From Defluviicoccus sp. (GTDB taxonomy: Bacteria > Pseudomonadota > Alphaproteobacteria > MPNO01), in contig JAJEHI010000048.1 in assembly GCA_022823775.1 (NCBI GenBank), forward strand, positions 42,267 to 106,266: a DNA stretch of 64,000 nucleotides. Reading direction: 5' to 3'. The notes beneath the pieces were generated by a model that saw only the letters and a list, made by a program, of their open reading frames with translations, was not told the origin of the DNA and searched no databases. Shown here in pieces: positions 12,944 to 62,745 of this stretch. The translations under genes and the position numbers were made by a program. The number at the start of each line of letters is the position of its first letter. Position 1 is the first letter of the stretch.

Positions 12944-13047
12944 CCGGCCTCCGCGGCGCCGCCGGAAACGTCGAGCGATGTTTGCGGCATTTGTTGCATT
13001 TACGGCACATATACCCCATCTTGCGTACAGATGACAAGGACGCCGCG

Positions 13048-13503
13048 ATGGCGAGAGAGAACGCGACGAGGATGGAACGCGGCCTCCCCAGTGACCGGGA
13101 TGCGGCGCTGGCCGGCCGGGCACGCCGTCGGCTGGCGTCATGGATCGAAGGGACGGATCCTGTGCCCGCACGATTCGGTACCGCGGTGGAGCCCGTCGAA
13201 ATTCCCACCTCCGCGATGCGGCTGCTCAAGGAGATCCTGGATCAGATGGCCGACGGCAACGGTGTCGCGCTGTTGCCGATGCACGCCGAACTGACCACGC
13301 GACAGGCGGCCGAACTCCTGCAAGTGTCGCGGACGCATCTTGTACAGTTGCTCGACGCGGGACGGATCCCCTGCCGAAAGGTGGGAGCGCACCGGAGGGT
13401 CCGCCCCGAGGACATCCTCGCCTACCGCAACGCGACCGAGTCCGGTCGCCGCCAGGCGCTCGACGAAATGACGGCCCGCGATCAGGAACTCGGCCTGCAG
13501 TAG
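13048..13503 (+). CDS. Helix-turn-helix (excisionase/MerR-like HTH) DNA-binding protein, putative antitoxin of the downstream PIN gene
   Basis: The HTH region is ELTTRQAAELLQVSRTHLVQLLDAGRIPCRKVG. A PIN gene follows 4 bp downstream, a known HTH-PIN toxin-antitoxin arrangement. Confidence 0.6.
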   Translation: MARENATRMERGLPSDRDAALAGRARRRLASWIEGTDPVPARFGTAVEPVEIPTSAMRLLKEILDQMADGNGVALLPMHAELTTRQAAELLQVSRTHLVQLLDAGRIPCRKVGAHRRVRPEDILAYRNATESGRRQALDEMTARDQELGLQ

Positions 13504-13506
13504 ACG

Positions 13507-14087
13507 ATGGCCGGCCCCACGGCGTTACTCGACGCCAATGTTCTCTATCCGGCCGGCCTTCGTGATTTCCTGCTTCGGTTGGCGGATCGGCGCTTGTATG
13601 CGCCGCTATGGAGCGCCGACATCCATGCGGAATGGATGCGGAATGGATGCGGAACCTCCTCGCCGATCGGCCCCACCTATCCGCCGATACGCTGGAGCGC
13701 ACACGCGCGGCCATGGACTGGCACTTTCCCGCAGCAGTGGTGACGGGATATGCCGCCCTTGCCGAGATGCTCGATCTACCGGACCCTGGCGATCGCCACG
13801 TACTGGCCGCGGCGATACCGGGGCGCGCGGACGTGATCGTGACTTGGAACCTGCGGCACTTCCCTGCCGACCGTCTCGCGTCCAGCGTCCTCGCGGCACG
13901 CAGCCCCGACGCGTTTATCGCGGGTCTGTTCGAGACCGGTCCCGAAGAGGTCGTGGCGGCCGTGCGCGGGCATCGCGCGGCGCTGAGAAACCCGCCGCGC
14001 TCAGCATCGGATCACTTGACCGCCCTCGAACGCGTCGGGCTGGCGAGGACGGCCGCGCTGCTCCGACCGCACGTGGGCGCCATTTGA
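13507..14087 (+). pseudogene. PIN-domain toxin gene disrupted by a +11 bp frameshift
   Basis: Frame 1 (13507..13743) encodes MAGPTALLDANVLYPAGLRDF...ADIHAEWMRN. The sequence continues only in another frame (13608..14087: ...EWMRNLLADRPHLS...HVLAAAIPGRADVIVTWNLRHF). Removing one copy of the duplicated GCGGAATGGAT restores a single ~190-aa PIN ORF. Confidence 0.65.
13617..13638 (+). repeat. Perfect 11-bp tandem duplication (GCGGAATGGAT x2) that frameshifts the PIN gene
   Basis: The sequence atccatGCGGAATGGATGCGGAATGGATgcggaacc is seen directly. 11 = 2 mod 3, which matches the observed frame change. Confidence 0.8.
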
Positions 14088-14278
14088 TCGGCGCGCGCCC
14101 CGTACGCAGAGGTCCAAGGCTGGATAGCCGCGCCCGCGCCCGGTATGTTCGGAATATTCCCACAGGCGACCGGCCGCCGATGTGCGGACCGTTCCGGTAA
14201 AGTGGAACACTGGCACGGACCGGACCTCGATCGGATGCCGGTCTCCGTATCGCGCCCGCGCAACAGGTGACAGGAACG

Positions 14279-15865
14279 ATGTCGAAGACAGACAGCTTCG
14301 CGGGGACGACGGTCTCCCGCTCTCCGGTTTACGGCACGAGGGGCATGGTGGTCTCCGGCCATTCTCTGGCTTCGCTCGCCGGGCTCCGCACCCTCGAACG
14401 CGGCGGCTCGATGGTGGACGCGATGATTGCCTGCTCCGCCGCGCTCTCGGTGGTGGTGCCGCAGGCGACCTCGCTCGGCGGCGATGCGTTCATCCTCTAT
14501 CACCGGGCGGAGGACGGGCGGACCATCGGCATGAACGCGTCCGGCCACGCGCCCGCAGGCGCGACGCTCGATGTCTACGAGGCGGGAATCCCGCACCGGG
14601 GGCCGCTCGCCTTCAGCGTGCCGGGGATGATCCGGGGCTGGGAGCGGATGCACGAGCGTTACGGCAAGCTCCCCTGGGCCGATCTCTTCGCCGACGCTGC
14701 GGCGCTGGCCGAGGCCCACCCGCTGTCGCGCGTCCTCGCCGGCGCGCTCAACCTCTTCCGCGAGGACGTCGAGGGCGACGCCGGCTGCCGCGACGTCTAC
14801 TACCCGGACGGCAAGCCGCTGCCGGCGGGCGCGATCGTGCGCCAGCCGGCGCTTGCTCGCACGGTGGGTCTGATCGCCGAGCACGGGAGTTCGGTCTTCT
14901 ACGAGGGCGAGATCGCGCAATCTATCGCCGCGTCCGCCCGGGCGCAGGGCGGGGTGGTCGCGGCCGACGACTTCGTCGGTTACGAGCCGGAATGGGTCGA
15001 GCCCGTGGAATCGGGCTACCGCGGGCTCACCATCCGGGTCATGCCGCCCAACTCCTACGGCGTGCTGATGCTGATGCAGCTCAACGCGCTCGACGGCGTG
15101 GACCCGGCGGAATTGAGCGGCGACGAGAGCAGGCGTCTCGCCTACCTGATGCGCGCCCAGCGCGCAGCTTTCGCCGCCGGGCAGAAGCACATCGCCGATC
15201 CGCGCACGAACCCCGCGCCGATCGACCGCCTGCTGGGCGACGAGACGACGGCGGCGCTGCGCGCAGAAGTGATGGGAGCCGCGCAACCCGCGCCCGCCAT
15301 GGCCCATCCCGCCGCCGGCACCTCCTGCATCACGATCGCCGACGGCGAGGGCGATGGGATATCGGTGGTGCAGAGCGTGTTCCACGTCTTCGGCAGCGCG
15401 TTCCTCGACCCCGGCACCGGCATCCTGATGAATAACCGGATGACCGGCTTCAGCATCGATCCGGAGAGCGCCAACGTGCTGGCGCCCAACAAGCGCCCCG
15501 CGCACACCCTCAACCCGGTGGCGGTCCTCGACGGCGACAGGGTTCGCTACCTGCTGACCACGCCGGGCGGGCCGAGCCAGACGCTGTCCCACGTCCAGAT
15601 CCTCAACAACCTGGTCGACCGGGGCATGGAGCTGACGGCGGCCATCGAGGCGCCGCGCTGGTCGATTACCCTGCAGGGCGAGACACTGCTCGACGAAGAG
15701 TTCGACGACGGCGTCGCCGACCGGCTGGCCGACGAAGGCTTCACCGTCAAGCGGGCCGCGGGCGCGGCCTATTTCGGGTCCGCCAAGGTGATCGAGGTCG
15801 CCAAGGACGGCGTGCTGATGGGAGCCGCCGACAGGCGCCGCGAGGCCTTCGCGGTCGGCGCCTGA
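14279..15865 (+). CDS. ggt: Gamma-glutamyltransferase family protein
   Basis: 528 aa. The GGT-family nucleophile region is GTSCITIADGEGDG and the C-terminal small-subunit motifs are present. The stop overlaps the next start (TGATG). Confidence 0.85.
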   Translation: MSKTDSFAGTTVSRSPVYGTRGMVVSGHSLASLAGLRTLERGGSMVDAMIACSAALSVVVPQATSLGGDAFILYHRAEDGRTIGMNASGHAPAGATLDVYEAGIPHRGPLAFSVPGMIRGWERMHERYGKLPWADLFADAAALAEAHPLSRVLAGALNLFREDVEGDAGCRDVYYPDGKPLPAGAIVRQPALARTVGLIAEHGSSVFYEGEIAQSIAASARAQGGVVAADDFVGYEPEWVEPVESGYRGLTIRVMPPNSYGVLMLMQLNALDGVDPAELSGDESRRLAYLMRAQRAAFAAGQKHIADPRTNPAPIDRLLGDETTAALRAEVMGAAQPAPAMAHPAAGTSCITIADGEGDGISVVQSVFHVFGSAFLDPGTGILMNNRMTGFSIDPESANVLAPNKRPAHTLNPVAVLDGDRVRYLLTTPGGPSQTLSHVQILNNLVDRGMELTAAIEAPRWSITLQGETLLDEEFDDGVADRLADEGFTVKRAAGAAYFGSAKVIEVAKDGVLMGAADRRREAFAVGA

Positions 15866-44019: not shown

Positions 44020-44039
44020 CCATCTCATTATTGAGATGG
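44020..44039. promoter_or_regulatory. Perfect palindrome CCATCTCA-TTAT-TGAGATGG in an AT-rich intergenic region; candidate LysR-type (ATC-N10-GAT) operator
   Basis: Seen directly about 45 bp upstream of the LysR ATG. The 43.90-44.08 kb interval is strongly AT-rich compared with the rest of the window, and TGAGATG recurs at 44005. Confidence 0.35.
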
Positions 44040-44081
44040 AAAGCAGTAATACTTTTGAATATTTCATCTCTAAGAGTGCCT

Positions 44082-44996
44082 ATGGTTGGTCGCTCCCGAG
44101 TACGCATCCCGGCGGTAAGCACTCTGATCGCGTTCGAGAGTGCCGGCCGGCTCGGCAACTTTTCTCGTGCGGCCGAAGAGTTGCAGACTTCCCAGTCCGC
44201 GATCAGCCGCCACATCGCGAAACTTGAGGAACAGCTTTCGACACGGGTGTTCCATCGGTCCCGGACCGGCGTAAGCCTGACCGAGACGGGAAGCGACCTT
44301 TACGACGCCGTGGCGGCCGGGCTCAAGACGATCGACAGCGCCATCGTCAGGGCCGGAGAGGCGTGCGACGAAGAGCACCTGTCGATCGCGTGTTCGCACG
44401 ACGCTTGGCAGTTCGTGTTCATGCCCCGGCTCGATGCGCTCCAGGAGTTTGTCGGCGAGAATTTCCCGATCCGTTTCACGCTTTACCCTCAGGACTCCCG
44501 GCATGTACCGCTGGATCCGGATGCCGACGTGGTATTCACCTGGGACGCGAGCGGCGCCGGTCCGGACACGCTGACAATCCCGGAAGCCGTCAGACCGGTC
44601 TGCTCGCCCCGATACGCGGAGGCCAACCCGGAAGTATTCGAAGGGCCGGCCGGCGGATGGAGCGGATTGACCCTGCTCGACTTCTCGATCCCGGACGGGG
44701 GTTGGGCATCCTGGGCGGACTGGTTCGGGATCGCCGGACGACCCGATCCCATGCCCCGCATCGTGGATCTCGACAGCTATGGCGATATCTTGCGAGCGGT
44801 GGCCGTCGGCAAAGGCGTGGCGCTCGGTTGGCGCTACTGCGTCGAACGATATATCGAAGCGGGTGCGTTGGTCCCGCTGGGCGATGACTTTATCGAATTC
44901 GACAATTTCTTTTGCGGATTGCTGACCGAGAAGGGACGAAAAAGGCCGGCCGCGCGCAGCTGTCTCGGTTTCATCGACGCGGCCATCGGGACCTGA
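44082..44996 (+). CDS. LysR-family transcriptional regulator
   Basis: N-terminal HTH LIAFESAGRLGNFSRAAEELQTSQSAISRHIAKLEEQL and a C-terminal substrate-binding domain. 304 aa. Confidence 0.8.
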   Translation: MVGRSRVRIPAVSTLIAFESAGRLGNFSRAAEELQTSQSAISRHIAKLEEQLSTRVFHRSRTGVSLTETGSDLYDAVAAGLKTIDSAIVRAGEACDEEHLSIACSHDAWQFVFMPRLDALQEFVGENFPIRFTLYPQDSRHVPLDPDADVVFTWDASGAGPDTLTIPEAVRPVCSPRYAEANPEVFEGPAGGWSGLTLLDFSIPDGGWASWADWFGIAGRPDPMPRIVDLDSYGDILRAVAVGKGVALGWRYCVERYIEAGALVPLGDDFIEFDNFFCGLLTEKGRKRPAARSCLGFIDAAIGT

Positions 44997-45026: not shown

Positions 45027-46649
45027 TCAGTAAATCCGGCGGATCGTCCTCAGCTGTCTCGCAATATCCGAAAACGCCGCCCGGAGCGTTTCGGGGTCCC
45101 GGTTTTCCAGGAAAACGTATGTTCCATCCGGTTTTTCCGCCTCGCTGGAGCACGCGCGCAGCGCCGTTCCCAGGGTCCCGGATACATTGTCCGGATGCAT
45201 CGCCGCGATGACGAAGATCTCGGTCCCGGCGGCCTTCGCGGCGTTACACGCCACGGCGCGATCGATGCCGACATCGTTGGTCTCGCAAGCCGGATCGTTA
45301 AGCCCGCACGGGTTGTCCTCTCCGTCCGTAAGCAGCACGATCGCTTTTCGGGTACCGGCGTTGCCCGAAGCGTCGGTGTCTACCGGATGGACGCCGCCGC
45401 CCCATGCATCCGTCCAGGAATGCGACAGCAGCCTTTGCCCCCACAGGACCCCGAGCGTGGAATAGGTCCGGAATCCCACCGGCGCGAGCGAGTCGATCGC
45501 CGCGCGGACCGCCGCGGCGTCGGATGTCAGCGGCAGAATGGATGGAATGACGGTGCCGTCATACGGCGATGTGCAGCCTCTCTGGGCGGACGTGCGGTCG
45601 TAGACCCCCCGCAGGTCGGCGGGGTCGTCGCCGTAACAGACCTGGTAGTTGAAGTTGTCGGGCAGCGGCGACTGCAGGCACTCGTACGCCACCCCCTGTA
45701 CCGACGGGAAGATCGCTTGAGCGAAAGGGTGCGACGACGGGGGGGCGAGCAAATCGGAGACGGCGGGCAGGGACGCATGATCCCCCGGCCCGGAGATCCG
45801 ATGCTCGTCCAGGCAGCCCTGCCAGGTCTCGTCGAATGTGGGCGGGAGCGTGTGGTCGACATCGAAAGCCGTGCAATTGCCCTCCGGTCGGCACGCGTAG
45901 GAGGCGGCATAGTTGCGGCTTTGCGGGTATTTCGCCCAACCGTCGGCTGCCCAGCCGGCCTGCATCGTTGCCGGCAGCCGGACCAGGATGTGCCACGGCA
46001 CCAGCCCCACCGCCACCCGGCTTTCTTCGCGCGGATCGAGAATGTCGACCAGGTCGAGGGCTGCCTGCCTTACGATATTCATCCGGCTGGGATCCTCGCC
46101 CCAGGCCGGAGAGCCATCCAGCCCGTCCCGCATCGACGCGCTGATGTCGATGGCAAGCACCACCTCGACGGCGTTCCTGACACTCTCCACCGCGCTCTCC
46201 CGCGCCACCGGACCCGGTCCGGAATAGCCGAACAGCCGTTCGGATATCGCCGTCCGCCCGATATCCGCCTGGACCGACGCGCCGACCGTTCCCGCCGTCC
46301 GGTCGATATCCAGCGTCACCGAGATATCCCCGGCCTCCAGATCGGGGTCGTTCGTGTTTCCCAGGACGTTCAGAACGGCATATTTTCGCGCGACGGCCAT
46401 AAGCCGTTCCTCCACGTCGCCGTCGGACATGGAGCTCGGCAACCCGCTCAGTTCCAGCGTCGCGGACATCGACACGGCGTCGGCCGCGCTCTTCAGGAGA
46501 TCGCGCCGATCGACGAGCCGATCATGATCGACGATCACGGCCGCGCCGCCCACCGTCATGATGACGACCCCGATGGCGACATAAGCGGTCGCCGCGGCGC
46601 GCCTGTTGCGAAGAAAGCGGCGAACGGGGCGGGTCGAATTCCGGAACAT
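45027..46649 (-). CDS. tadG: TadG-like Flp-pilus assembly protein with von Willebrand factor A domain
   Basis: The N-terminal Tad-like membrane anchor is RRAAATAYVAIGVVIMTVGGAAVIV and the vWA region is VVLAIDISASM...IVLLTDGEDN. Confidence 0.7.
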   Translation of the reverse strand: MFRNSTRPVRRFLRNRRAAATAYVAIGVVIMTVGGAAVIVDHDRLVDRRDLLKSAADAVSMSATLELSGLPSSMSDGDVEERLMAVARKYAVLNVLGNTNDPDLEAGDISVTLDIDRTAGTVGASVQADIGRTAISERLFGYSGPGPVARESAVESVRNAVEVVLAIDISASMRDGLDGSPAWGEDPSRMNIVRQAALDLVDILDPREESRVAVGLVPWHILVRLPATMQAGWAADGWAKYPQSRNYAASYACRPEGNCTAFDVDHTLPPTFDETWQGCLDEHRISGPGDHASLPAVSDLLAPPSSHPFAQAIFPSVQGVAYECLQSPLPDNFNYQVCYGDDPADLRGVYDRTSAQRGCTSPYDGTVIPSILPLTSDAAAVRAAIDSLAPVGFRTYSTLGVLWGQRLLSHSWTDAWGGGVHPVDTDASGNAGTRKAIVLLTDGEDNPCGLNDPACETNDVGIDRAVACNAAKAAGTEIFVIAAMHPDNVSGTLGTALRACSSEAEKPDGTYVFLENRDPETLRAAFSDIARQLRTIRRIY

Positions 46650-46837: not shown

Positions 46838-48952
46838 TCAATAGTAGTAGCCGCCAACCAGCGCCGGGGCGGGTTCGTCCCGCTCTTCCGGAGACCCGCC
46901 GGTCCGGACCAGCCGGGCCGTGACGATCACCACCAGCTCGAGGTCCTCCGATCGTATCGAGCGATGCCCGAACAGCGGTCCCAGCAACGGGATGTCCTTG
47001 AACACCGGGAGGCCCGCCTCCCGCGTGTCGGACGCGTTGCGGAACAGCCCGCCTATCACGATCGAGTCTCCGTCGCCCACTTCGACCGTCGTCTCCGCGC
47101 GGCGCACGTTGATCACCGGGATATTGACGCCCACCACCTGGACCGCCTGGTTCAGCGACGGCTCCGACACTTCGGGCCTGACCTTCAGCACGATCCTGCC
47201 GGCGTCTATGACCGTGGGGACGAAGTCGAGCAGGACGCCGTATTTCTTGTATTCGAACAGGATGACCCCGTCCTCGAACCCGGTCGGCAGCGGGTATTCG
47301 CCACCCGAGAAGAACGACGCCGCCTCGCCCGACACGGCGGTGAGGTTGGGCCTGGCCAGCACGTTCGCCGAGCCGGCCCTGGCAAGCGCGTCGATCATGC
47401 CCGAGATGCGCGTGTCCTTCGTATGCCTGCCGAAGAAGAGACCGGGGGAGGGCTGACCGTCGACGAGTGACGGAGCGAAGGCGCCGATCGCGCTTCCCGC
47501 GACCGACGGGACGCTCGCCAGCCGGCCGATCCGGAAGCCGAACACGTTGTCGCCCGGGGTCCGGAATGCCTCCCAATTGATCCCGAGGTCCTCGCTGAGC
47601 GAGCGCTGGACCTCGGCGATCTGGACTTCAAGGCTCACCTGCTGCGCGCCGGCCACACGCAGTTCGGTTTCGACGACGGTGTCCTTCGGCAGAGCCGCCG
47701 CCGCGAGCCGGAGGGCGCGTTCGGCGAGAGCGGCGGAGGCGACATCGCCCGACAGCGCTATTCCCCGCGCGACCCGCCTCGCCCGTACGCCGCGCAGATC
47801 GGGCTCTCCGGCCAGGTTCGCACGAACGGGTTCGAGGTCGAGCATGACGGACACGATCCAGTCCCGCACCCGACCGTCCTCTCCGAGCACCGCGACGGAG
47901 GTTCTGCCGACGCTCTTGCCGACGATGTACAGCACGTCGGGCGATAGCAGCTGAACGTCCGCCACCTCGGGCGCCGCCACCAGCAGCGAGGTCGCGCTGG
48001 AATCGAGCCCGAGGCGCCTGCTCTGCCCCAGCGAAAGGGTCATCGTCGCCGGCAGGGGGACGCCCGGCGTTCGGTCCGCGGCCGCCTCCGCCTCCGGGAC
48101 CGGCGGCGCCTCCCGCTCCGTTCCGGGACCCTGCGGGGAGGGCCGTTCCGCAATGCGAAGCAGGGCGCCCGTGGACCCCGGCAGCGCCGCTTCGCGGGCC
48201 GCGGGGCCGTCCCCTTCCCGCGCCGGCAGACGCATCGCGAGGCTCGGATGGACCGCACGCGCCGCGGCCTGGCGCCGCCGCTCCCGCCGCGCTTCCTCGA
48301 TCAGATGCCACAGCGAAGAACCGTCCTCGCCCAGCCAGAAGGACGGATCGTGCCGCGCGTGAACCTCCGCCGCGCTCTCTTCCTTCCCGGCCGCCAGCAG
48401 CATGCGCACGAAATTCGCGGTGATCCCCGGATGGCCCGAAGACAGGCGGAGAGCCCGGCGGTATTCCGCCTCGGCCGTCTCGTAATCGCCTTCGAGGCTG
48501 GCGAGGACGCCGATGCCGTTGGCGACCCAGGCCGCCGAGGGCCCCCGTCCCGCCGATTCGCGCGCGCTCCCGAAGTGCCGCCGCGCGTCGTCCAGCGTGC
48601 CTTGGGCGAGCGCCGTCCGCCCCGCGCCGAGGAGCGCTTCCGCCTTGATGGCCGGCGCCTCCTCCGCCAGCGCCGCGGCCCCGAGGAAATAGTCCTTCGC
48701 GGCCGGCAGGTCGTTGTCGAGGGACGCGATATATGCCAGCCCGAGGAGCGGTTCGGGAGCCTCGTCGAAGCGTTCGGCCAGGGAGCGGTATAGCCTGCGG
48801 GCGACCGACGGCTGGCCCGCGGTAAAGGCGGCGGCCGCGACGGACAGGTTGTTTTCAAGAAGATCCTGGCGGCCGGCGGGATCGTCCGACGACGGGCCGG
48901 TCGCGCATGAGGCGACCGCCGCGACCGAGATGAAAACGGCAGCGGCGCGCAT
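46838..48952 (-). CDS. cpaC: CpaC/RcpA-type secretin fused to an N-terminal TadD-like TPR domain; lipoprotein signal
   Basis: Real start MRAAAVFISVAAVASC at 48952. The first ~270 aa are TPR-like. These are followed by the pilus-formation N-domain (LSLGQSRRLGLDSS...VLYIVGKSVGRTSV) and the secretin core (ARPNLTAVSGEAASFFSGGEYP...FKDIPLLGPLFG). Confidence 0.75.
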   Translation of the reverse strand: MRAAAVFISVAAVASCATGPSSDDPAGRQDLLENNLSVAAAAFTAGQPSVARRLYRSLAERFDEAPEPLLGLAYIASLDNDLPAAKDYFLGAAALAEEAPAIKAEALLGAGRTALAQGTLDDARRHFGSARESAGRGPSAAWVANGIGVLASLEGDYETAEAEYRRALRLSSGHPGITANFVRMLLAAGKEESAAEVHARHDPSFWLGEDGSSLWHLIEEARRERRRQAAARAVHPSLAMRLPAREGDGPAAREAALPGSTGALLRIAERPSPQGPGTEREAPPVPEAEAAADRTPGVPLPATMTLSLGQSRRLGLDSSATSLLVAAPEVADVQLLSPDVLYIVGKSVGRTSVAVLGEDGRVRDWIVSVMLDLEPVRANLAGEPDLRGVRARRVARGIALSGDVASAALAERALRLAAAALPKDTVVETELRVAGAQQVSLEVQIAEVQRSLSEDLGINWEAFRTPGDNVFGFRIGRLASVPSVAGSAIGAFAPSLVDGQPSPGLFFGRHTKDTRISGMIDALARAGSANVLARPNLTAVSGEAASFFSGGEYPLPTGFEDGVILFEYKKYGVLLDFVPTVIDAGRIVLKVRPEVSEPSLNQAVQVVGVNIPVINVRRAETTVEVGDGDSIVIGGLFRNASDTREAGLPVFKDIPLLGPLFGHRSIRSEDLELVVIVTARLVRTGGSPEERDEPAPALVGGYYY

Positions 48953-49254
48953 GCGCCGGACGAGATGTCGACATGGTTGCCGGATCACGAGCATTTCCAA
49001 TCCGGCCCCGTTGTCAGCGAACGAAGCACGACCGCTCCATCTTCCGTCAAGATTTCGAACCCGGGCGAAGAATGAACGCGGTTCCCGAATTCGATCCTAT
49101 CGATCCAGAGACCGCGAACCTGGGTGTATCCCCGCGATCCGGACGCTCGATCCGGCACCGCCGCAACCGGCGAACCCATAAGCGAACTTGGCAGAATATG
49201 CCTAACACGATATGAATTGTGAACAGAAGTGAGATATTTTGTCGCCCTCGCCCC

Positions 49255-53110: not shown

Positions 53111-54612
53111 ATGACTCTCGACGCTTCTCCGAACGGCCGCGATCGTCCGGCCGGGCCTCCCCCGGAACGCGCGCCCGACTTCGACCTCGATTTCGACGTC
53201 GATTTCGAGGCCCTGCTGCGGGCCGGGCTTCCGGACGATCCGGGCGAGGGCGAGGACGCCACCGCCGCCGACCTGGCGAGCGCTCTCTCCGCCGGCCCCT
53301 TGGACGATCCATCTCCGCCGCCGGCCGATCCGGACCTGCCCGACCTCGCGGACCTTTCCGGCATCGCGGCGGACCTGCCGGGTCCGGGCGCCGCGATCGA
53401 CGCCGGCAGCGATGAGGACGCGGACGACACGGCTTCCGAGTCGACGCCCGAAGGTCCCGCCGCCGCGCTCGCCTTCGCGGCCGATGCGGAGACCGAGAAC
53501 GCCCTGCGCGAGGGTCTGATGCATTTCGAAGGGGCGATGCCGGACTGCGACGATCCCCAGGTTTGGCCGGGCGGCCTGCGAGCGGCCGTCGCGGCGCTCG
53601 CCGACGGGCATTCCTCCGGTCTCGTCATCGTCGATATCGACGGTATCGCCTACCCGTCGGGCGCCATTCACGAGCTTGCCGAGGTCTGCGAGATCGGAAC
53701 CGTCGTCATCGCGGTCGGCTCGAACGGCACCGCCCGTTTCAGCCGCGAAATATTGCTTGCCGGGGTCAGCGACTATCTGGTGAAGCCGCTCACCCCGCAG
53801 ACGGTGAGGGAGGCGACACGCCGCGCGGCCGCGTCCCGGGCGGACGCCCCCGCGAGGGGATGCGTCGCCGGGTTCGCCGGCACCGGCGGCAGCGGCGCGA
53901 CCACCCTGGCGGTGGCGACCGCGCTCCATGCGGCGGAGACCGGCCGTTACGTTTCTGTGCTCGATCTGAACCGGACCGTCCCCGTCGCGGCGCTTCTGCT
54001 CGACGTGCAGCCGGCGGCCGGGCTGGAACAGGTCATCGAGGTCGCCGGCGACGCGCCGCTCGAGGCAAACACGCTGGACGGCGTCCGGGCGCAGCGCTCC
54101 GAGCGGGTATCGATCTACGCCTATCGCTGGTCTCCCGTGCTGCCCCCGGCGCCGTCGGGCCCGGCGCTCGCCCGCCTGCTGGGCGAACTGAAGAGCCGGT
54201 CCCAGCTCGTGCTCGTCGACGGGATCGACGATCCGCCGACCCAATTCGCCCTGCTGTCCGAGGTCGATGTCCCCGTTCTGGTGGCGGAACCGACGGCGGA
54301 CGGCGCAACCCGCGCGGCCCGTATGCTGGAGCTTCTCCCCGGCGACGCCCCGGCCGTCGCGGTGAAGAACCACACGCGCGCGTTCCGGCCGGACGCGGGG
54401 GCGCGGGCGCTCGTCGACGCCGGGATGGAGGCCGCGCCGGACATCCTGGTTCTGTACCTTCCGTCGCTGCCGGAAATCGCCGACCGGGGCTGGCCGCGCG
54501 GCAGGCTTCCCCGCCGCTTGCGCAAGCCCGTCGCGAGCCTTCTCGAACGGATCCTCGCATCGGCCCGCCTCGCCCGTGTCGTCCCGGACGGGCGCCTCGC
54601 GGAGGCGGCGTG

Positions 54613-54613
<1 letters not shown>
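53111..54613 (+). CDS. cpaE: CpaE/TadZ-family protein, paralogue 2, with a ~140-aa acidic/Pro-rich N-terminal extension
   Basis: The receiver-like region is LVIVDIDG...SDYLVKPL. The MinD-like domain has the Walker A-like GFAGTGGSGATTLAVA, again without lysine. Confidence 0.7.
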
Positions 54614-56006
<1,393 letters not shown>

Positions 56007-56010
<4 letters not shown>

Positions 56011-56966
56011 CGCACTTCCTGATCGTCGTGGGCACGGCCCTGGTGGCGACGCTGCCCGGGGTCGCCTTCCTGCTGCTGCTGTGGAACCGCGACCGGCGGT
56101 TGCGCGGCCGGCTTCAGGGCGCGTCCGCTTCGCATATCGACGAGGCGGTCTCCGAGGACGATGCGACCGAGGCCATCGTCTTTCGCTCCTCGGCCGGATC
56201 GCGGTCGGCTCGCCTCCGGCGCGCGATCGAGAGCCGGTATCCCCTGCTCGACGCCCGGCGGGCGGTTCCGCGCGCGGTTCTCGCGGGCGGCGCGGCGGCG
56301 GCCGGCCTGTGGGTTTCGATGTGGTTCCTGAAGATCCCCTCCGGCTGGTGGACGATGCCCCTCGTCGGGTTGGGCGGCGTGGGCGGCATCTGGTACGCGC
56401 TGTCGTGGTTTCACTCGCGGCAGGCGACCGAGTTCACCCGCCAGTTCCCCGAAGTCATCGACCAGATCGTGCGGCTATCCGCGGCGGGGCTGCCCGCGCT
56501 TGAGGCGATCCCTGTCGCCGCCGAAGACGCCCGGGCGCCCGTCAAGCCGGTGCTGAACGCCGTCTGCGACGGGCTTAGCGGCGGGCTCGATCCCGACACC
56601 GCTCTTCGAACTGTCGCCACCCGCGTCCGCCTCGCGGACTTCACCTTGTTCGCCGCGGTGATACTGCTGCAGCGCCGCGCCGGCGGCGGTATCTCCGCCG
56701 CGTTCGCCACCCTCTCCCGCACGCTTCGCGATCGTCGCAACACCGCGCTGAAGGCGCAGACATCCACCGCGCAGACCCGCCTGACCCTTATGGTGCTGTC
56801 CGTGATGCCGGTGGTGATGCTCAGCATCCAGAAGTTCATCTCGCCCCAATCCGCCGCGATCCTCTTCGAGACCGAACGGGGGACGACCCTCCTGCATTGG
56901 GGCGTCGGCCTGATCGTCGCCGGCCTTCTGGTCGCGAAGGCTATCGCTTCGCGCGTCGAGCAATAG
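56007..56966 (+). CDS. tadB: TadB (T2SS-F-domain inner-membrane platform protein)
   Basis: GTG start overlapping the cpaF stop (GTGA); 319 aa with a T2SSF domain. Confidence 0.8.
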
Positions 56967-56983: not shown

Positions 56984-57955
56984 ATGCAGAACGCCTTCAT
57001 ACCGGTCGCCGGACTCGTCCTGGGCGCCGCCTACGTGCTGCTTCTCGCGCCGCTGATTATCCGGGAAACGCGGCGGGCGCAGCAAATGGACAGGCGGTTG
57101 ACCGCGTTGCGCGATTCCCCGTTCGGCTACGCCGCCGGACACGCGGCCCGCGACGGCGGCCGGGGCAAGGCCCTGATCAGGGCGCTCGGCCTGACGGCCA
57201 TGCGTGTGGCGTCGATGCTGGTCCCGATCGGCGCGGCCGAGCGCGAGAAACTCACCCGCATGCTCCGCGCGGGCGGCTTCGGGCAGCACGAAGCGCTCTC
57301 CGTTTTCCTCTCCGCGAAGCTCGGCGGCGCGTTCCTCCTCGCCATCGGCGCCGGGCTCTGGGCGACCTCTTCGGAGACGGTCGGACAGCACGCGTTTCTC
57401 GCCCTGTTCGCCGCGCTGGCGGGCTTCGTGATCGGCGGTGTCATCCCGGAATACGTGCTGCGTGCGCTGGTGGCCCGAAGGCTGCAACGGATGACCGCGG
57501 TCCTGCCCGACGCGCTGGACATGCTGGTGATGTGCCTCGAATCCGGCCTGACGGCGGAACGGGGAATCCTGACGGTCGCCGACACGCTGGCGCCCATCGA
57601 GCCCAATCTCGCCAGGGAGTTCCAGCAGATCGAGGCGGAGCTGCGGGTCGCGTCGGACCGCCGCGCGGCGCTCACCGAGTATTACCGGCGCACGGAGATC
57701 GACGGTCTGCGCGACCTCGTGATGGCGCTCATACAGGGCGACCGGTACGGCACCCCGCTGTCCCAGTCGATGAAGAACATCGCGGCCGACGAACGGATGC
57801 AAAAGGCGGCGCGCATCGCGACCCAGGCCGAGCGCCTGCCGGTCCTGATGACCCTGCCGATGATCATTCTCGTGGTTCCCGGAACCATGCTCCTGGTGGC
57901 GGGCCCCGCCGTTCTGGGCGCGCTTACCGGGCTGGCAAAAATGAGTGGCGGATAG
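56984..57955 (+). CDS. tadC: TadC (T2SS-F-domain inner-membrane platform protein)
   Basis: Start MQNAFIPVAGLVLGAAYVLL; 323 aa with a T2SSF domain. Confidence 0.8.
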   Translation: MQNAFIPVAGLVLGAAYVLLLAPLIIRETRRAQQMDRRLTALRDSPFGYAAGHAARDGGRGKALIRALGLTAMRVASMLVPIGAAEREKLTRMLRAGGFGQHEALSVFLSAKLGGAFLLAIGAGLWATSSETVGQHAFLALFAALAGFVIGGVIPEYVLRALVARRLQRMTAVLPDALDMLVMCLESGLTAERGILTVADTLAPIEPNLAREFQQIEAELRVASDRRAALTEYYRRTEIDGLRDLVMALIQGDRYGTPLSQSMKNIAADERMQKAARIATQAERLPVLMTLPMIILVVPGTMLLVAGPAVLGALTGLAKMSGG

Positions 57956-57956
57956 G

Positions 57957-58943
57957 ATGTACAAGACGCGCGGTCGCTCTTCCGCCGGACGGGCGGTTTC
58001 CCTGCTTGCCACTTTGGCCGCGGGCCTCACGTGGCTCGCCTGCGGCGATCTCCGCGCCGAGGAGCCGATCCTGCCGATCCCCGAAAATGTCGACGTCGAT
58101 CCGGCCAAGGTCGAGCTGGGCCGAAAGCTGTTCCACGACCCGATATTGTCGAAGGACGGCACGATCTCCTGCGCTAGCTGCCACGATCTGGCGGGCGGCG
58201 GCGATGACGGCCGCAAGATTTCGCTCGGCGTCGACGACAAGCCGGGAATGGTCAACTCGCCCACCGTGTTCAACGCGGGCATGAACTTCAAGCAGTTCTG
58301 GGACGGCCGCGCGAGCACGCTCGAGCATCAGATCGACGGTCCGGTGCAAACCGCCTTCGAGATGGGCAGTCTCTGGCCGGACGTCGTCGCCAAGCTCTAC
58401 CGCGACGGCGCCTATCCCAAGCTCTTCAAGAAGAGCTATCCCGACGGGATCAATCGCAAGAACGTCAAAAACGTCATCGCCGAGTTCGTAAGGTCCCTCA
58501 ACACTCCCAACAGCCGCTTCGACCGGTGGCTGAAAGGCGACAAGAACGCTCTCAACGCGCAGGAAAAGCGCGGCTACGCATTGTTCAAGGACTATGGCTG
58601 CTCGTCGTGCCACCAGGGCGCGAACGTCGGCGGGAACATGTTCCAGGTGTTCGGCGTCCTGAACGACTACTTCAAGAAACGCGGCAACATCACGGAAGCC
58701 GATCTGGGCCGCTACAACATCACCGGAAACGAAGAAGACCGGCACGCCTTCAAGGTTCCCAGCCTGCGGATGGCGGCGATGACGGCACCCTATCTGCATG
58801 ACGGAAACGCGGCCACGCTCCGCGACGCCGTCGACGCGATGTTCGAATTTCAACTGGGGCGCGAAGCCCCCGACAAGGACAAGGAAGCCATCGTGGCGTT
58901 CATCGAGACGCTGGTGGGCGAATCCAAGGAGCTATCGAAATGA
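57957..58943 (+). CDS. ccpA: Di-haem cytochrome c peroxidase (CcpA/MauG family), periplasmic
   Basis: Two CxxCH haem motifs (CASCHD, CSSCHQG), a signal peptide, and the conserved FKVPSLRMAAMTAPYLHDG. The track begins at a GTG at 57945; the ATG at 57957 is preferred. Confidence 0.85.
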   Translation: MYKTRGRSSAGRAVSLLATLAAGLTWLACGDLRAEEPILPIPENVDVDPAKVELGRKLFHDPILSKDGTISCASCHDLAGGGDDGRKISLGVDDKPGMVNSPTVFNAGMNFKQFWDGRASTLEHQIDGPVQTAFEMGSLWPDVVAKLYRDGAYPKLFKKSYPDGINRKNVKNVIAEFVRSLNTPNSRFDRWLKGDKNALNAQEKRGYALFKDYGCSSCHQGANVGGNMFQVFGVLNDYFKKRGNITEADLGRYNITGNEEDRHAFKVPSLRMAAMTAPYLHDGNAATLRDAVDAMFEFQLGREAPDKDKEAIVAFIETLVGESKELSK

Positions 58944-60733
58944 GGTCTGGCGCAGTCATTCTCGGCATTGCCGTCTCCGCCGTCCTGCTGGCCGTCGCGG
59001 GCGGTCTTTATGTGCTGGCGGGCAATAACAGCGGAGACGGTTATCGCAAGGCGATCGATCTCGTGCGGCAGATCCAGCTGCTGTCGTCGGAATGGAGCAT
59101 GGAAGTCACGCGCGTGAAATCCGATCAGTTCGCCGATTTCGACTCGCTGGCCGCCTTCCTGCCGCGCATGGCGCGGCTGAAGGACGAGCTTGCCGACACG
59201 GCCCAGCGCATCCCCCAACTTCCCGACCGGATCGCCAGCGACATGCAGGCCTATCTCAACGCGATCGAAGCGAAGGAAGAGCGCATAGAACGCTTCAAGA
59301 CGGGCTACGCCGTGGTGCGCAACTCCAACCGCTACCTGCCGCTGGCCGCGACCAACGTCCTGCAGCAGGCGCAGAACTCGAGGGACGACGCGCTGGTCCG
59401 GAATATTTCGAGCCTGATCCGGGATGTGAACCTCTATCTCGCCACGCCGACGGACACGTCCCAGTCCCGGCTGACCGCCGAGATCAAGAAGCTCCGCGAA
59501 TCCAGCGTCTCCTATCCGCCTCCGCTCGCCAACGCGCTGGCCAATCTGTTCTCCCACGCCGAGGTGCTTGTGGCCAAGCAGGGGCCGACGGAGGAGCTGT
59601 TCAAGAGGGCCACGTCCGGCGAAGTCTCCGACCTGACGGAGCAGCTGAGCAGCAATCTGCAGTTCGAGCTCGGCAAGAAGGTGCTCCTCGCGACCTATTA
59701 CGACCGGGGCATTCTCGTGGTGTTCGCCGCGCTGATCCTGTTCTGGATCCTGCTCGCGCTGCAGCAGCGGATTCGCGGCGGCTCCGCCGTGACCCGGGTC
59801 GCTTCCCGCCCCTCGGCGATCGAGATCGCACCCGCGCCCGCCGGCGCCGGGGAGGCCGTCGTCGCGGCGGAGGAGACGCATCCGGCGCCGGTGCGGCCCG
59901 CGCCCGTCGAGGCGGAAGCCATCCGTCTGCCCGACGAACCCGAATCCCTGCCCGTCGCGGCGGCGGCTTCGTCCCCGGAACCGAGCGCCGAATCCATCCT
60001 GATGCAAGGGTTCGTCGTCAAATGCGTGGCCGGAATCATGGCCGCCTCGGCCGACGAAATCGCCGGCCGCATGGAGTATCTGCGCCGAACCCAGAACAGG
60101 ATCCAGGACGCCTTCCGAAACAGCGACGGTATCGCGGAAACGTCCGATGGAACGGATGTCGACGAAGAGATCGAAACGATCTCCGCCATCGCGCTGAGCG
60201 TCCGCCAGAGGATGAACGGCATCGCCGATCTCGCGAAGCGGCTCGACTCCTATTCCAACGGTCACGCCAACGGGGCGGACCGCGGAATGATCGACCTCAA
60301 CGCCTGTGTCGAGAACGTCATCGAGACCGCCGGTGCCGCGAACCGGGCGACGGTCGTGAGGAACCTGGGCGACATCCCGGAGATATTCGCCTCCAGGACC
60401 GAATTTCAGCTGCTCCTGTCGGAACTGATCGACAACTCGATGGTCGCGGTCGAGGGACTCGACGACAGAAAGGGCATCATCAAGATCGATACCGCGCGGA
60501 AGAACGACGAAATCCTGATCACCGTCATCGACAATGGCGACGGTATCGCCCCCGACAAGCGCGCGAACATCTTCAAGCCGTTCTACACGTCCCGCGACGG
60601 GGCGATGGGCATCGGCCTGACCCTCGCCGGTCACCTGGTCAAGAAATACGAGGGGGTCATCAAGATCAATTCGTTGCCCGGCCAGGGGACGGTGGCGCGC
60701 GTCACGCTGCCGGCCGGCGTGTCGGGGGCGTAG
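58940..60733 (+). CDS. Membrane sensor histidine-kinase-like protein (two TM helices, periplasmic domain, C-terminal HATPase_c); no canonical H-box recognised
   Basis: N-box LLLSELIDNSMVA, G1 DNGDGI, F FKPFYT, G2 GMGIGL. TM1 AVILGIAVSAVLLAVAGGLYV and TM2 ILVVFAALILFWILLAL. The ATG overlaps the ccp stop. Confidence 0.65.
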   Translation: MRSGAVILGIAVSAVLLAVAGGLYVLAGNNSGDGYRKAIDLVRQIQLLSSEWSMEVTRVKSDQFADFDSLAAFLPRMARLKDELADTAQRIPQLPDRIASDMQAYLNAIEAKEERIERFKTGYAVVRNSNRYLPLAATNVLQQAQNSRDDALVRNISSLIRDVNLYLATPTDTSQSRLTAEIKKLRESSVSYPPPLANALANLFSHAEVLVAKQGPTEELFKRATSGEVSDLTEQLSSNLQFELGKKVLLATYYDRGILVVFAALILFWILLALQQRIRGGSAVTRVASRPSAIEIAPAPAGAGEAVVAAEETHPAPVRPAPVEAEAIRLPDEPESLPVAAAASSPEPSAESILMQGFVVKCVAGIMAASADEIAGRMEYLRRTQNRIQDAFRNSDGIAETSDGTDVDEEIETISAIALSVRQRMNGIADLAKRLDSYSNGHANGADRGMIDLNACVENVIETAGAANRATVVRNLGDIPEIFASRTEFQLLLSELIDNSMVAVEGLDDRKGIIKIDTARKNDEILITVIDNGDGIAPDKRANIFKPFYTSRDGAMGIGLTLAGHLVKKYEGVIKINSLPGQGTVARVTLPAGVSGA

Positions 60734-60857: not shown

Positions 60858-62177
60858 ATGACTTCGCGGGGAGATCGAAACAGCAGCCTGCGGATGCAGC
60901 TGGTGTCCAACGCGCTCCTGAGCGTCGCGCTGCCGATCCTGATCGTCGGCGGATTGACCTTCTTTCTGCTCGCGTATCATCTCGACATCATCGAGACGAG
61001 CTTCGCGCGGAGCCGGGATGCGGTAACCAACGACATCGCGCGGACCGACCTCGTGTCGCGGGCGACAACCACCGCGAGCCAGATCGATACTTTCCTGGTC
61101 AGCCGTATCACCGAAGCCAAGGCCTGGGCGACGTCGAAGGCCGTCGTCGAGGCCGCCCGGTCGGCCGGCGCCAGGCACGCGGCCGAGGGGTTCGTCAAGA
61201 CCCCCGCCGCCGAGGTCGAAAGGAGATTCCGCATCGAAAAGAGCCTGGGCCTCTGGCCGGAAGCCGATTCCTTCCTGCGCCAGCAGGTCGCGGCGTCGCC
61301 TTACTTCGCGGAACTCTTCTTTACCGACAGCAACGGTTTCAACGTCGCGCTCACCAACCCCACCAGCGATTTCATCCAGTCCGACGAGGAATGGTGGAAG
61401 CGAGCCTGGAGCCAGGGGATTTCCGTGGGCGAGGTCGAGTACGACGACTCCGCCGGGGTCTGGTCCGTGGAAATCTCGGTCCGGATAGACAACCCGACCG
61501 GGAAAAAGGCGCTCGGCGTCATGAAGACGGTGCTCGCCATCGAGCCCATTCAGAACATCGCCGACAGGGCGGCCCAGTCCGTTCCGGGCGGCCGCGTCCA
61601 GGTCGCGACGGGGCGCGGCGCGCTGATCGCCGAGACGGCCTCCGGCCACGCCCGGGAACGAATTATGAATGGCGAAGTCAACGTGCAGGAACAGGGCGAA
61701 CCGTCGGTGCGGGCCGGTTTCGGCGGTGAACAGACGGGGTTCGCCACCGACCGGGAATGGCTCACGGGGTACGCCCGGACCGGCGGCCGCGAGACCTATG
61801 CTTCCGCCGTCGGCCGGTTCGCGGGTTTCGACTGGATCGTGATCGTCCAGAAACCGATCGCCGCCATCCACGAGCCGATCACGGCGCTTCGCGGTATCGA
61901 GGACGCGCTGCGCGATTGGCGCCTCATTCTCGCGCTGGCCCTGGGCGGCATGGCGTTGCTGAGTTCGGTGCTGGCGATTTCCCTCGCCGTCGGGGCCGCC
62001 CGGCGTTACGCGAACGCCCTGGGCGCGGTCACCGAGATGGCCGAACGTTCGGCCCGGGGCGAACGGGTCAGTCCCGCGGTCATCCGCAACCCCCAGGAGA
62101 TCGTTCGCGTGAACGACGCCGTCCATCGCCTGGTTCAGGTGTTCGCCGGCGTCCGGGAGCGACCGCGAGCGACGTAG
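60858..62177 (+). CDS. Cache-domain sensor with two TM helices and a C-terminal HAMP domain, lacking any output domain
   Basis: TM1 LLSVALPILIVGGLTFFLLA, a ~300-aa periplasmic Cache-like region, TM2 LILALALGGMALLSSVLAISLAV, then HAMP-like NALGAVTEMAERSARGERVSPAVIRNPQEIVRVNDAVHRLVQVF, followed by the stop. Confidence 0.6.
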   Translation: MTSRGDRNSSLRMQLVSNALLSVALPILIVGGLTFFLLAYHLDIIETSFARSRDAVTNDIARTDLVSRATTTASQIDTFLVSRITEAKAWATSKAVVEAARSAGARHAAEGFVKTPAAEVERRFRIEKSLGLWPEADSFLRQQVAASPYFAELFFTDSNGFNVALTNPTSDFIQSDEEWWKRAWSQGISVGEVEYDDSAGVWSVEISVRIDNPTGKKALGVMKTVLAIEPIQNIADRAAQSVPGGRVQVATGRGALIAETASGHARERIMNGEVNVQEQGEPSVRAGFGGEQTGFATDREWLTGYARTGGRETYASAVGRFAGFDWIVIVQKPIAAIHEPITALRGIEDALRDWRLILALALGGMALLSSVLAISLAVGAARRYANALGAVTEMAERSARGERVSPAVIRNPQEIVRVNDAVHRLVQVFAGVRERPRAT

Positions 62178-62262: not shown

Positions 62263-62745
62263 GTGGAGAGCCGTTCGATGGCGAACGCAACCGCATGGAT
62301 CGTCTGGCTGGCGGGGTGGGCCGCATGCGGCCTGTTCGTCGCCGCCGCGGTCAGCGACCTTCGGACCCGCCAGGTGTCGAACGCGATACCCCTGCTGCTG
62401 CTCGGGCTTTTCGCGGTGTACGCGGCGGCCGGCGCGGTCCGGCCCGCAACGTCGCTCTGGCAGCATCTGGCGATAGGCGCCGTACTGCTCGCCGCCGGTT
62501 TCGCGCTCTACACGACCGGTCGCTTCGGCGGGGCCGATGCGAAGCTGATCGCCGTGGCGGGGTTGTGGGCCGGTCCGAACGACCTGGCGGCGTTCCTGTT
62601 CGTTCTGGGCGGGTGCGCTTTGTTGCTGAGCCTGTATGCCTTGCTGCCTCACGCGGGGGCGCGGCGTCTGCGGTCGGAACTTCCCTTCGCCCTGGCGATC
62701 GCGCCGCCGAGCCTGGCGGTCATCGTCCCGCGCGCGCTGCCATGA
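62263..62745 (+). CDS. cpaA: Prepilin peptidase CpaA/TadV (A24 family)
   Basis: 160 aa polytopic membrane protein; the catalytic Asp contexts are AAVSDLRTRQVSN and GGADAKL. Confidence 0.75.
   Translation: MESRSMANATAWIVWLAGWAACGLFVAAAVSDLRTRQVSNAIPLLLLGLFAVYAAAGAVRPATSLWQHLAIGAVLLAAGFALYTTGRFGGADAKLIAVAGLWAGPNDLAAFLFVLGGCALLLSLYALLPHAGARRLRSELPFALAIAPPSLAVIVPRALP

Follow-up and report, generated by a model that had tools for sequence, protein, structure and literature searches.

The window analysed here is a stretch of 64,000 nucleotides from Defluviicoccus sp. (contig JAJEHI010000048.1), and it contains at positions 60858 to 62177 a gene for a membrane protein that combines a periplasmic double-Cache sensor domain with two transmembrane (TM) helices and a short HAMP-like cytoplasmic tail, after which the protein ends. 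The gene is part of a Tad (Flp) pilus operon, and it belongs to a family of output-less dCache-HAMP receptors that has no name, covers a broad phylogenetic range and is associated with such operons. The gene and the parts of its product are arranged as follows:

60858..62177 (+): output-less dCache-TM-HAMP-like receptor, a complete open reading frame (ORF) with ATG start, 439 amino acids plus stop (ORF list; GC content at third codon positions, GC3, 0.85; 290 homologues)
60900..60986 (+): TM1, about residues 15-43 (Kyte-Doolittle windows of at least 1.6; part of the AlphaFold2 (AF2) helix 11-91)
60990..61916 (+): periplasmic double-Cache (dCache_1-like) sensor domain, about residues 45-353 (Pfam, AF2, Foldseek, near-invariant residues)
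61917..61997 (+): TM2, about residues 354-380 (hydropathy; inside the AF2 helix 334-399)
61998..62165 (+): cytoplasmic HAMP-like tail, residues 381-436, with a helix resembling amphipathic sequence 1 (AS1), Gly401, a connector, Glu414 and an AS2-like helix

A Shine-Dalgarno-like GAGGG lies 7 nucleotides upstream of the ATG, and the identical 439-residue protein is called on the public record of the same contig (ENA ERZ23491513, scaffold_122, 170.6 kb). According to hydropathy, the protein extends for 57-59 residues beyond TM2, close to the about 55 residues given in a preliminary description of the locus, and its C-terminus is reached only 3 residues past the HAMP-like tail. Scans against Pfam and NCBIfam gave no HisKA, HATPase, MCPsignal, GGDEF or other output domain in this protein, and there is no NCBIfam model that matches it. 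The sensor domain was detected by the Pfam model dCache_1 (PF02743) at residues 60-330 with an E-value of 1.1e-6 and 28.9 bits, covering profile positions 6-239 of 240, and the same model matches 36 of 39 family members (best E 8.8e-13). The AF2 model, which was built from 39 family members, has a mean predicted local distance difference test score (pLDDT) of 81.7 and values mostly above 90 in the periplasmic part, where it predicts a long N-terminal stalk helix, an extra helical insert (94-146) and two tandem PAS-like alpha/beta modules. The two modules are thus placed on a stalk helix between the two hydrophobic TM helices, which is the arrangement of a double Cache domain. When Foldseek was used with this model, it retrieved dCache ligand-binding domains, namely those of PctD (7e-11), PctA, TlpQ, Tlp3, DctB and KinD, with a probability of 1.00, and also the full-length model of McpB/McpC (1e-13 over 431 columns), although the sequence identity of the Cache domain to solved dCache domains is only 10-16%. 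A sequence search of the PDB with the family profile and with a profile of the tail gave nothing meaningful. The earlier reading as a Cache-TM-HAMP-like protein that lacks a transmitter therefore stands.

The family is large enough to compare proteins that end after the tail with proteins that do not. A scan of one genome per GTDB species yielded 390 relatives, and 79 loci were analysed. The protein terminates 51-77 residues past TM2 in 70 loci, a count that takes in loci fetched by exact-protein look-up and several duplicate places, whereas in 12 loci it continues for 260-600 further residues. These longer relatives carry the output domains that the window protein lacks, and three fused forms can be distinguished: Cache-HAMP-MCPsignal in Rokubacteria/Methylomirabilota, Planctomycetota and Desulfobacterium, Cache-HAMP-GAF-HisKA-HATPase-REC in Dehalococcoidia, and Cache-HAMP-HATPase in Acidimicrobiia. 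The proteins of the last type (L068, L076 and L087; 930-980 amino acids) carry a HATPase_c domain with no detectable HisKA and resemble, as we presume, the actinobacterial CvnA-type ("conservon") sensor proteins. An exhaustive search of 1.84 billion representative proteins with a hidden Markov model gave 210 matches at E<=1e-30, and the best 150 of these comprise 26 complete stand-alone proteins, 74 proteins with at least 200 further residues, and fragments. Output-less members occur repeatedly, in Alpha- and Gammaproteobacteria as well as in Binatia and Thermodesulfobacteriota. An unbootstrapped neighbour-joining tree of the sensor domain separates the stand-alone from the fused forms and divides the former, which cluster with one another, into three clades. 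Clade A, to which the window protein belongs, comprises Alphaproteobacteria (Thalassobaculaceae, Defluviicoccus) and some Gammaproteobacteria with at least 46% identity to the window protein, clade B comprises Gammaproteobacteria (37-40% identity), and clade C comprises Binatia, Thermodesulfobacteriota and "Deltaproteobacteria" (35-44% identity).

About 20 sensor residues are near-invariant in stand-alone and fused relatives. Most of them are located in the distal module (E121, T156, D157, G160, N162, D171, F172, Q174, D176, E177, W179, W180, S198, R209, K223 and Q232) and the others in the proximal module (T260, H264, M270 and W326). As this conservation extends to all forms irrespective of their output, it suggests that a single ligand or cofactor has been retained and that the sensor is able to signal. 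The membrane-distal dCache module may thus bind a small molecule or an ion. As the conserved pocket residues are acidic and aromatic in character, the ligand might be cationic, which we regard as a lead only. The same applies to a comparison with the amino-acid motif of PctA, in which, by a count of positions, the invariant Glu177 presumably takes the place of the carboxylate-binding Arg.

The HAMP call for the tail is based on the family-wide alignment and on the spacing of signature residues. This was preferred to the hhalign comparison of the tail with the HAMPs of fused relatives, which was weakly positive (E 3.9e-4, 35% probability) with AS2 mis-registered by a heptad. Among the 39 close clade-A relatives, only 4 have a Pfam HAMP match (best E 9.8e-4). 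In clades B and C, however, the stand-alone relatives have clear terminal HAMPs that score 30-50 bits against a Pfam cut-off of 25 bits, and they retain RPI/APV in AS1 and NDE(I/L/F) at the start of AS2. In a 47-sequence alignment of all forms, Gly401 is conserved in 43 and Glu414 in 46 sequences, at the canonical spacing of 13 residues and in register with the Pfam-significant HAMPs of clades B, C and D. The AF2 model predicts a helix that runs from TM2 into AS1 (334-399), a loop (400-411) and a second helix (412-433), which is HAMP-like in length and position. With the clear HAMPs of distant relatives, the in-register Gly and Glu, and the predicted helix-connector-helix arrangement taken together, it is reasonable to regard the tail as a diverged, degenerate HAMP. 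A conserved phosphorylation site in the tail was considered and rejected, as the His of "AVHRL" and the Ser/Thr near residue 398 vary among the relatives.

A sensor without output could simply be the remnant of a receptor or kinase, or an assembly frameshift could hide its output domain. The preliminary description had listed the remnant of a methyl-accepting chemotaxis protein (MCP) or histidine kinase as one possibility, and in fact relatives with the same sensor do have MCP or kinase outputs, and the HAMP of the window protein is degenerate. The gene nevertheless behaves like a functional unit. The 290 homologues include a best set of 120 clusters (47-92% identity) with lengths that are almost all between 420 and 480 amino acids, the length is conserved in more than 100 clusters from 4 phyla, and the C-terminus is located 55-65 residues after TM2 in 39 of 39 aligned members. 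Pairwise comparison with seven orthologues gave ratios of non-synonymous to synonymous substitution rates (dN/dS) of 0.15-0.29 for the whole gene and of 0.13-0.39 for the tail alone, so that the tail, like the rest of the gene, is under purifying selection. A decaying remnant would also not be expected to recur as an output-less form across taxa, or to group with other stand-alone forms in the sensor-domain tree. As to a frameshift, the ORF ends with a TAG at 62175-62177, and GC3 drops from 0.85 in the ORF to a non-coding level of 0.59 in the read-through frame, while the overlapping cpaA gene has a GC3 of 0.86 and a Peptidase_A24 match. There is no coding continuation after the stop in the window and none that is conserved in orthologues; cpaA fills the DNA that follows, which leaves no space for an output domain. 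That no frameshifted continuation can be seen had been noted before, and this is fully borne out. As an independent record of the contig gives the same 439-residue protein as well, the remnant or frameshift explanation can be considered refuted, with a practically negligible residual chance. The gene thus represents a genuine, evolutionarily conserved family and not an artefact.

What is this family for? The strongest contextual signal is its linkage to Tad operons, which escaped the preliminary description even though cpaA had been recorded there as the downstream gene. On the plus strand, the window has the gene order TadE-like, Flp pilin, a 500-residue protein in the position of CpaE, CpaF, TadB, TadC, a protein resembling cytochrome c peroxidase (CCP) and MauG, a DAHL-HATPase, and Cache-HAMP, and this continues with CpaA, a double-RcpC protein, a 650-residue protein and a TPR-SPOR protein. 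The assigned Tad genes nearest to the receptor gene are:

54613-56010 (+): CpaF/TadA ATPase (Pfam T2SSE, 2.3e-60)
56007-56966 (+): TadB (T2SSF)
56984-57955 (+): TadC (T2SSF)
62278..62745 (+): cpaA/tadV prepilin peptidase, directly downstream of the receptor gene (Peptidase_A24, 6e-15; GC3 0.86; the ORF also opens at a GTG at 62263)

For a tally across the family, loci of at least 9 kb were used after removal of duplicates, and a locus was counted when it contained at least two Tad genes. This was the case for 14 of 21 loci in clade A, where several of the loci without Tad genes are contig ends, and for 20 of 25 in clade C, as opposed to 0 of 18 in clade B and 0 of 11 among the fused relatives. 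In clades A and C, the Cache-HAMP gene is directly 5' of cpaA or one gene away from it. In about 20 loci of clade C the genes follow the order TPR (819 amino acids), Cache/HAMP, TPR/SPOR, CpaA and RcpC; TadC-TadB-CpaF are encoded on the opposite strand, and there is no kinase-like gene. Where one genome has several Tad clusters, each of them has one Cache-HAMP gene, as exemplified by L009 and L015 on contig CBDDOM010000002.1. Two or three paralogous Cache-HAMP genes are found per such genome (L012, L021 and L028, for instance, come from one Defluviicoccus metagenome-assembled genome, MAG), and most of these paralogues are located in their own complete cluster of Tad, CCP and DAHL-HATPase genes. 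The output-less protein is thus encoded by a Tad-pilus-operon gene that is conserved across taxa, though not universally, and its fused relatives are not linked to Tad genes. In clade B, the neighbourhood offers only short unannotated ORFs or plain housekeeping synteny (RelA/SpoT, aminotransferase, MttB-like), and the adjacent small ORFs have no Pfam match.

The position among structural genes and the presence of one copy per Tad cluster would also suit a structural component that does not sense anything, with the Cache fold serving as a periplasmic scaffold in the manner of PilN/PilO or GspL/M and without binding a ligand. We consider this very improbable. The near-invariant residues of the distal module recur in relatives fused to MCP or kinase outputs, none of which has Tad genes nearby, and this points to a common ligand and not to a contact specific to the Tad machine. 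Moreover, clade B is not Tad-linked, and many Tad operons with the same gene set do without a Cache-HAMP protein.

Directly upstream of the receptor gene, between it and tadC, there are two further genes of which the products are potentially relevant for its function:

57957..58943 (+): di-haem cytochrome c peroxidase/MauG/MbnH-like protein (Pfam CCP_MauG, 1.7e-56)
58940..60733 (+): DAHL domain, TM, disordered linker, DHp-like hairpin and HATPase_c, 597 amino acids, no phospho-acceptor His (Pfam DAHL 5.6e-29, HATPase_c 3.3e-19)

The DAHL-HATPase has an all-helical periplasmic DAHL domain and two TM helices. The Pfam scan gave no HisKA for this protein, and it has no HAMP. Its N, G1, F and G2 motifs are legible in the sequence (ELIDNS, DNGDGI, FKPFY and GAMGIGL), and AF2 predicts a DHp-like hairpin (350-443) and a CA domain (448-591) behind a 73-residue linker between TM2 and DHp (280-352), which is predicted to be disordered (pLDDT 31-37). 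At the position of the H-box (residue 372), 120 homologues have E in 58, D in 39, S in 11, G in 7 and T in 3 cases, and never a His, in line with the earlier statement that an H-box-less HATPase protein with a periplasmic domain of its own is encoded upstream. From these features it looks like a pseudo-histidine kinase, or a kinase that does not use His, that is dedicated to Tad operons. The di-haem protein is matched by the NCBIfam models of the MbnH family (2.6e-48) and of MauG (9.9e-46), in both cases below their cut-offs. Its stop codon overlaps the start codon of the DAHL-HATPase gene (ATGA), and the di-haem gene is directly 5' of the DAHL-HATPase gene in every examined locus with enough sequence. 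MauG-family enzymes modify Trp residues of partner proteins, and the periplasmic sensor domains of both neighbours of the di-haem protein, DAHL and Cache, are Trp-rich. Literature searches on the DAHL domain and on a combination of Flp, peroxidase and kinase found nothing relevant. The DAHL-HATPase gene is immediately 5' of the Cache-HAMP gene in 20 loci, and the two genes are adjacent in about 16 of 21 clade-A loci. As each of the two occurs in Tad operons without the other, the CCP and DAHL-HATPase pair and the Cache-HAMP protein are two separable Tad-associated modules that are often but not necessarily found together. In locus L055, a 470-residue DAHL-domain protein without HATPase (7400-8809) is encoded 5' of a stand-alone Cache-HAMP protein with a canonical HAMP, and this is a second kind of output-less sensor pair.

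These observations can be combined into a mechanism in which the protein serves as an output-less dCache-TM2-HAMP accessory sensor of the surrounding Tad (Flp) system. In a first step, a small molecule or ion from the periplasm would bind to the conserved pocket of the membrane-distal dCache module, which is suggested by the fact that the same sensor with the same near-invariant residues drives MCP or kinase outputs in other phyla. The resulting conformational change would then travel along TM2 to the HAMP-like bundle at the end of the protein, which is presumed to be a homodimer, as the architecture suggests. As a Cache-HAMP protein lacks any enzymatic domain, its HAMP or TM region would finally have to act in trans, by contacting a partner protein from the same operon. 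At the window locus, the favoured partner is the adjacent His-less DAHL-HATPase, since the two proteins appear complementary: the one has a HAMP without output, the other an ATP-binding output without HAMP, on a flexible tether. The DAHL-HATPase may then act on the motor or platform of the Tad system, i.e. on the CpaE-position protein, CpaF or TadB/C, whereas in relatives without DAHL-HATPase a protein of the Tad operon itself would have to be the direct partner. The divergence of the clade-A HAMP may reflect an adaptation to the DAHL-HATPase partner. A strict association of HAMP degeneracy with the presence of a DAHL protein was examined and is not clean, as the protein of L055 has a DAHL-only neighbour and a canonical HAMP. 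The split or heteromeric sensor that the preliminary description proposed is thus still a plausible option, insofar as the two genes are adjacent in most clade-A loci and the HATPase protein combines a disordered linker with the absence of a HAMP, but the pairing is not obligate in either direction.

We estimate the probability of this explanation as a whole at roughly 0.45. Its general part, namely that the protein is a functional, trans-acting receptor linked to the Tad system, appears very probable from the comparative sequence data and the predicted structure, while for the specific route through the DAHL-HATPase the chances seem slightly less than even. Several points weigh against the explanation. 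As a whole, it is built on comparative genomics and a predicted structure, and every relative that was found comes from MAGs of uncultured organisms, several of which appear to be sponge-associated, as judged by their names. As to the Cache and HAMP domains that had initially been read from the sequence, the profile search returned dCache_1, with its 28.9 bits below the Pfam gathering score of 45 bits, and for HAMP (PF00672) the window protein had no Pfam match even at E<=10. In clade A, ARRYAxAL and PxEIxRLN are found instead of the proline in AS1 and of the DEIG-like start of AS2. The 18 loci of clade B and the clade-A loci L022, L023 and L028 have no Tad or kinase gene nearby. The clade C Tad operons have a Cache-HAMP but no DAHL-HATPase gene, and conversely, CCP and DAHL-HATPase genes occur without a Cache gene and with cpaA directly next to them in L088, L090, L093 and L094-096. 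In L101 (7760-11074), two proteins with TbpB-like beta-barrel domains are encoded between DAHL-HATPase and cpaA, in the slot of the Cache-HAMP gene. Finally, the canonical Tad machine of Caulobacter, as described, has no Cache-HAMP component (PMC13170226).

Which alternatives exist for a route through the DAHL-HATPase? As clade C works without a DAHL-HATPase, a direct coupling to the Tad machine has to be taken as a serious rival. The TM or HAMP region would in this case contact TadB/TadC, the CpaE-position protein, CpaF or the prepilin peptidase and gate assembly or retraction depending on the ligand, while the CCP and DAHL-HATPase pair would represent a second, independent accessory module. 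It is the Tad genes, and not the kinase-like protein, that clades A and C have in common, and the separate occurrence of the kinase-CCP pair and the Cache gene in Tad operons, as well as the position of the latter directly 5' of cpaA or one gene off in both clades, are in favour of this reading. However, no known Tad component binds a HAMP, and the in-situ architecture of the Caulobacter machine shows no such subunit (PMC13170226). In addition, the clade-A gene nearly always adjoins the gene for the kinase-like protein, and the clade-A HAMPs have diverged from the canonical form of clade C, which suggests that they have a different partner. We consider direct coupling rather unlikely, albeit less so than any of the other alternatives.

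Another possibility is that the interactions take place outside of the cytoplasm. The dCache domain, the DAHL domain and the MauG/MbnH-like di-haem protein could form a periplasmic co-sensor complex, for which the HAMP tail would only provide dimerization or anchoring. Each of the three proteins has a periplasmic domain, their genes share an operon in at least 13 loci, and CCP and DAHL-HATPase are translationally coupled by the ATGA overlap. Kinases are known to be regulated by PDC-like proteins that are anchored in the membrane and face the periplasm, as WalK is by YycH/YycI, and a WalK-YycH model is among the Foldseek matches of the window protein. Nevertheless, the tail is under purifying selection and keeps HAMP signature residues, and clades B and C keep canonical HAMPs without a DAHL or CCP partner. 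We therefore consider such a complex improbable, though somewhat less so than a purely structural role.

The favoured mechanism, a HAMP that signals in trans to a Tad-associated partner, has a close parallel in the Cache_heme-HAMP (CHH) receptor of Pseudomonas azotoformans that was described by Deshpande, Xu, Dunleavy, Zhulin and Crane (bioRxiv 10.64898/2026.05.25.727664). This receptor has no output domain either, its terminal HAMP binds an operon-encoded Ser/Thr kinase with nanomolar affinity, and ligand binding alters the phosphorylation of the HAMP (bioRxiv 10.64898/2026.05.25.727664). In both systems, a Cache-type sensor in the periplasm is combined with two TM helices and with a cytoplasmic HAMP at the C-terminus that has no output fused to it, and both have an operon-encoded kinase-type protein as likely partner for signalling in trans through the HAMP, which in case of the window protein is putative. 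There are also clear differences. The window sensor is a double Cache of the dCache_1 type, and as the protein contains no Cys, it cannot have a CXXCH haem site; an identity as Cache_heme protein was therefore rejected. The neighbour of the CHH receptor is a PknB-like Ser/Thr kinase with HAMP-binding helical repeats, whereas here it is a membrane-bound His-less HATPase_c protein with a DAHL sensor, and there is no Pkinase match among the window neighbours (CCP_MauG, DAHL-HATPase_c, Peptidase_A24 and Tad genes). The operon, finally, is a Tad pilus cluster. With the CHH receptors, the output-less Cache-HAMP architecture is thus no longer unprecedented, and the mechanism that we propose for the window protein by analogy draws on sequence and modelling.

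Apart from the CHH receptor, three groups of known proteins share individual aspects with the window protein. The dCache_1 chemoreceptors and kinases (PctA/PctB/PctD, TlpQ, Tlp3, DctB, KinD and B. subtilis McpB/McpC) have the same fold and the same sensor-TM-HAMP topology (Foldseek E 1e-13 to 1e-8), and the remote relatives of the window sensor are MCPs and kinases. The window protein differs from them in that it has no MCPsignal, HisKA or HATPase domain and in that it has the additional helical insert. Membrane-anchored accessory proteins that modulate kinases are known from YycH/YycI-WalK, LiaF-LiaS, SaeP/Q-SaeS and MzrA-EnvZ. By analogy, the window protein would be a non-enzymatic protein that tunes the neighbouring kinase-like membrane protein by contact. 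Unlike the window protein, these accessories do not have a HAMP or a canonical ligand-binding dCache domain with receptor relatives, and the kinase-like partner at the window locus has no phospho-acceptor His and is paired only facultatively. Regulatory inputs to pili are known in the form of PilJ-Chp and PilS-PilR for type IVa pili, PprA-PprB for the Flp pili of P. aeruginosa, and PleC/DivJ in Caulobacter. These are likewise sensory membrane proteins that are genetically coupled to pilus systems, but they carry MCP or kinase outputs and act via phosphorelays or transcription. In the searchable library, no paper was found that connects Tad pili to proteins with Cache or HAMP domains.

The usual view of HAMP domains is that they relay signals in line, between an input and an output of one polypeptide. 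Signalling in trans from a terminal HAMP to a separate kinase has been described in one preprint of 2026 (bioRxiv 10.64898/2026.05.25.727664). If the mechanism proposed here is correct, it would extend this principle to an ordinary double-Cache sensor, to a different class of partners and to several phyla, and it would provide Tad pili with a dedicated chemical input that links a chemical cue to pilus function. Tad pili are important in adhesion, biofilms and surface sensing, and to our knowledge their control by the environment is poorly understood except in a few model organisms. One could go a step further and envisage ligand-gated regulators as parts of Tad machines in general. A periplasmic cue would then be perceived by a sensor that is shared with chemoreceptors, and the signal would act post-translationally on the bifunctional CpaF motor or the platform, either directly or via the His-less, ATP-binding pseudo-histidine kinase that receives the HAMP in trans, and thereby switch extension, retraction or adhesion. 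In the three-gene version, the di-haem enzyme may in addition oxidize a Trp of one of the Trp-rich periplasmic sensor domains or give a redox input, so that the whole would be a sensory unit that functions without a phosphorelay. The chance that this wider scheme applies in full is small, and we place it below that of a direct coupling and slightly above that of the periplasmic complex. In any case, the Tad linkage, the contrast with the fused relatives, and the His-less kinase and MauG-like pair form a concrete and testable system, for which the fused MCP and kinase versions of the same sensor, as well as Tad operons with and without the Cache-HAMP gene, are natural controls. Should the mechanism be wrong, what would remain is a well-defined protein family that has no name but a distinct genomic signature, and this would be of value for annotation only.

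Some further features of the region concern the Tad operon and its surroundings. A promoter and terminator scan of the gaps that flank the Cache-HAMP gene gave nothing above the shuffle expectation, and no tRNA genes were found in the window. The 500-residue protein in the CpaE/TadZ position (53111-54613, plus strand) is encoded directly 5' of cpaF and has no Pfam match at E<=0.01, and its homologues are encoded at the corresponding place in loci of clades A and C. Downstream of cpaA, the RcpC/CpaB homologue (586 amino acids) has two RcpC domains. Its gene starts at window position 62784 and runs past the window end, and it was seen in full at 11927-13687 of locus L006, where it is followed at 13728-15680 by the gene for the 650-residue protein, which has no Pfam match and is conserved in related loci. 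The minus strand carries, divergent from the Tad operon, the genes for a secretin that has a TPR region at its N-terminus (TPR, T2SS-T3SS_pil_N and Secretin; 46838-49000) and for a weakly VWA-like protein of 540 amino acids (45027-46649), and a gene for a LysR-type regulator (44031-44996, plus strand) lies beside them.

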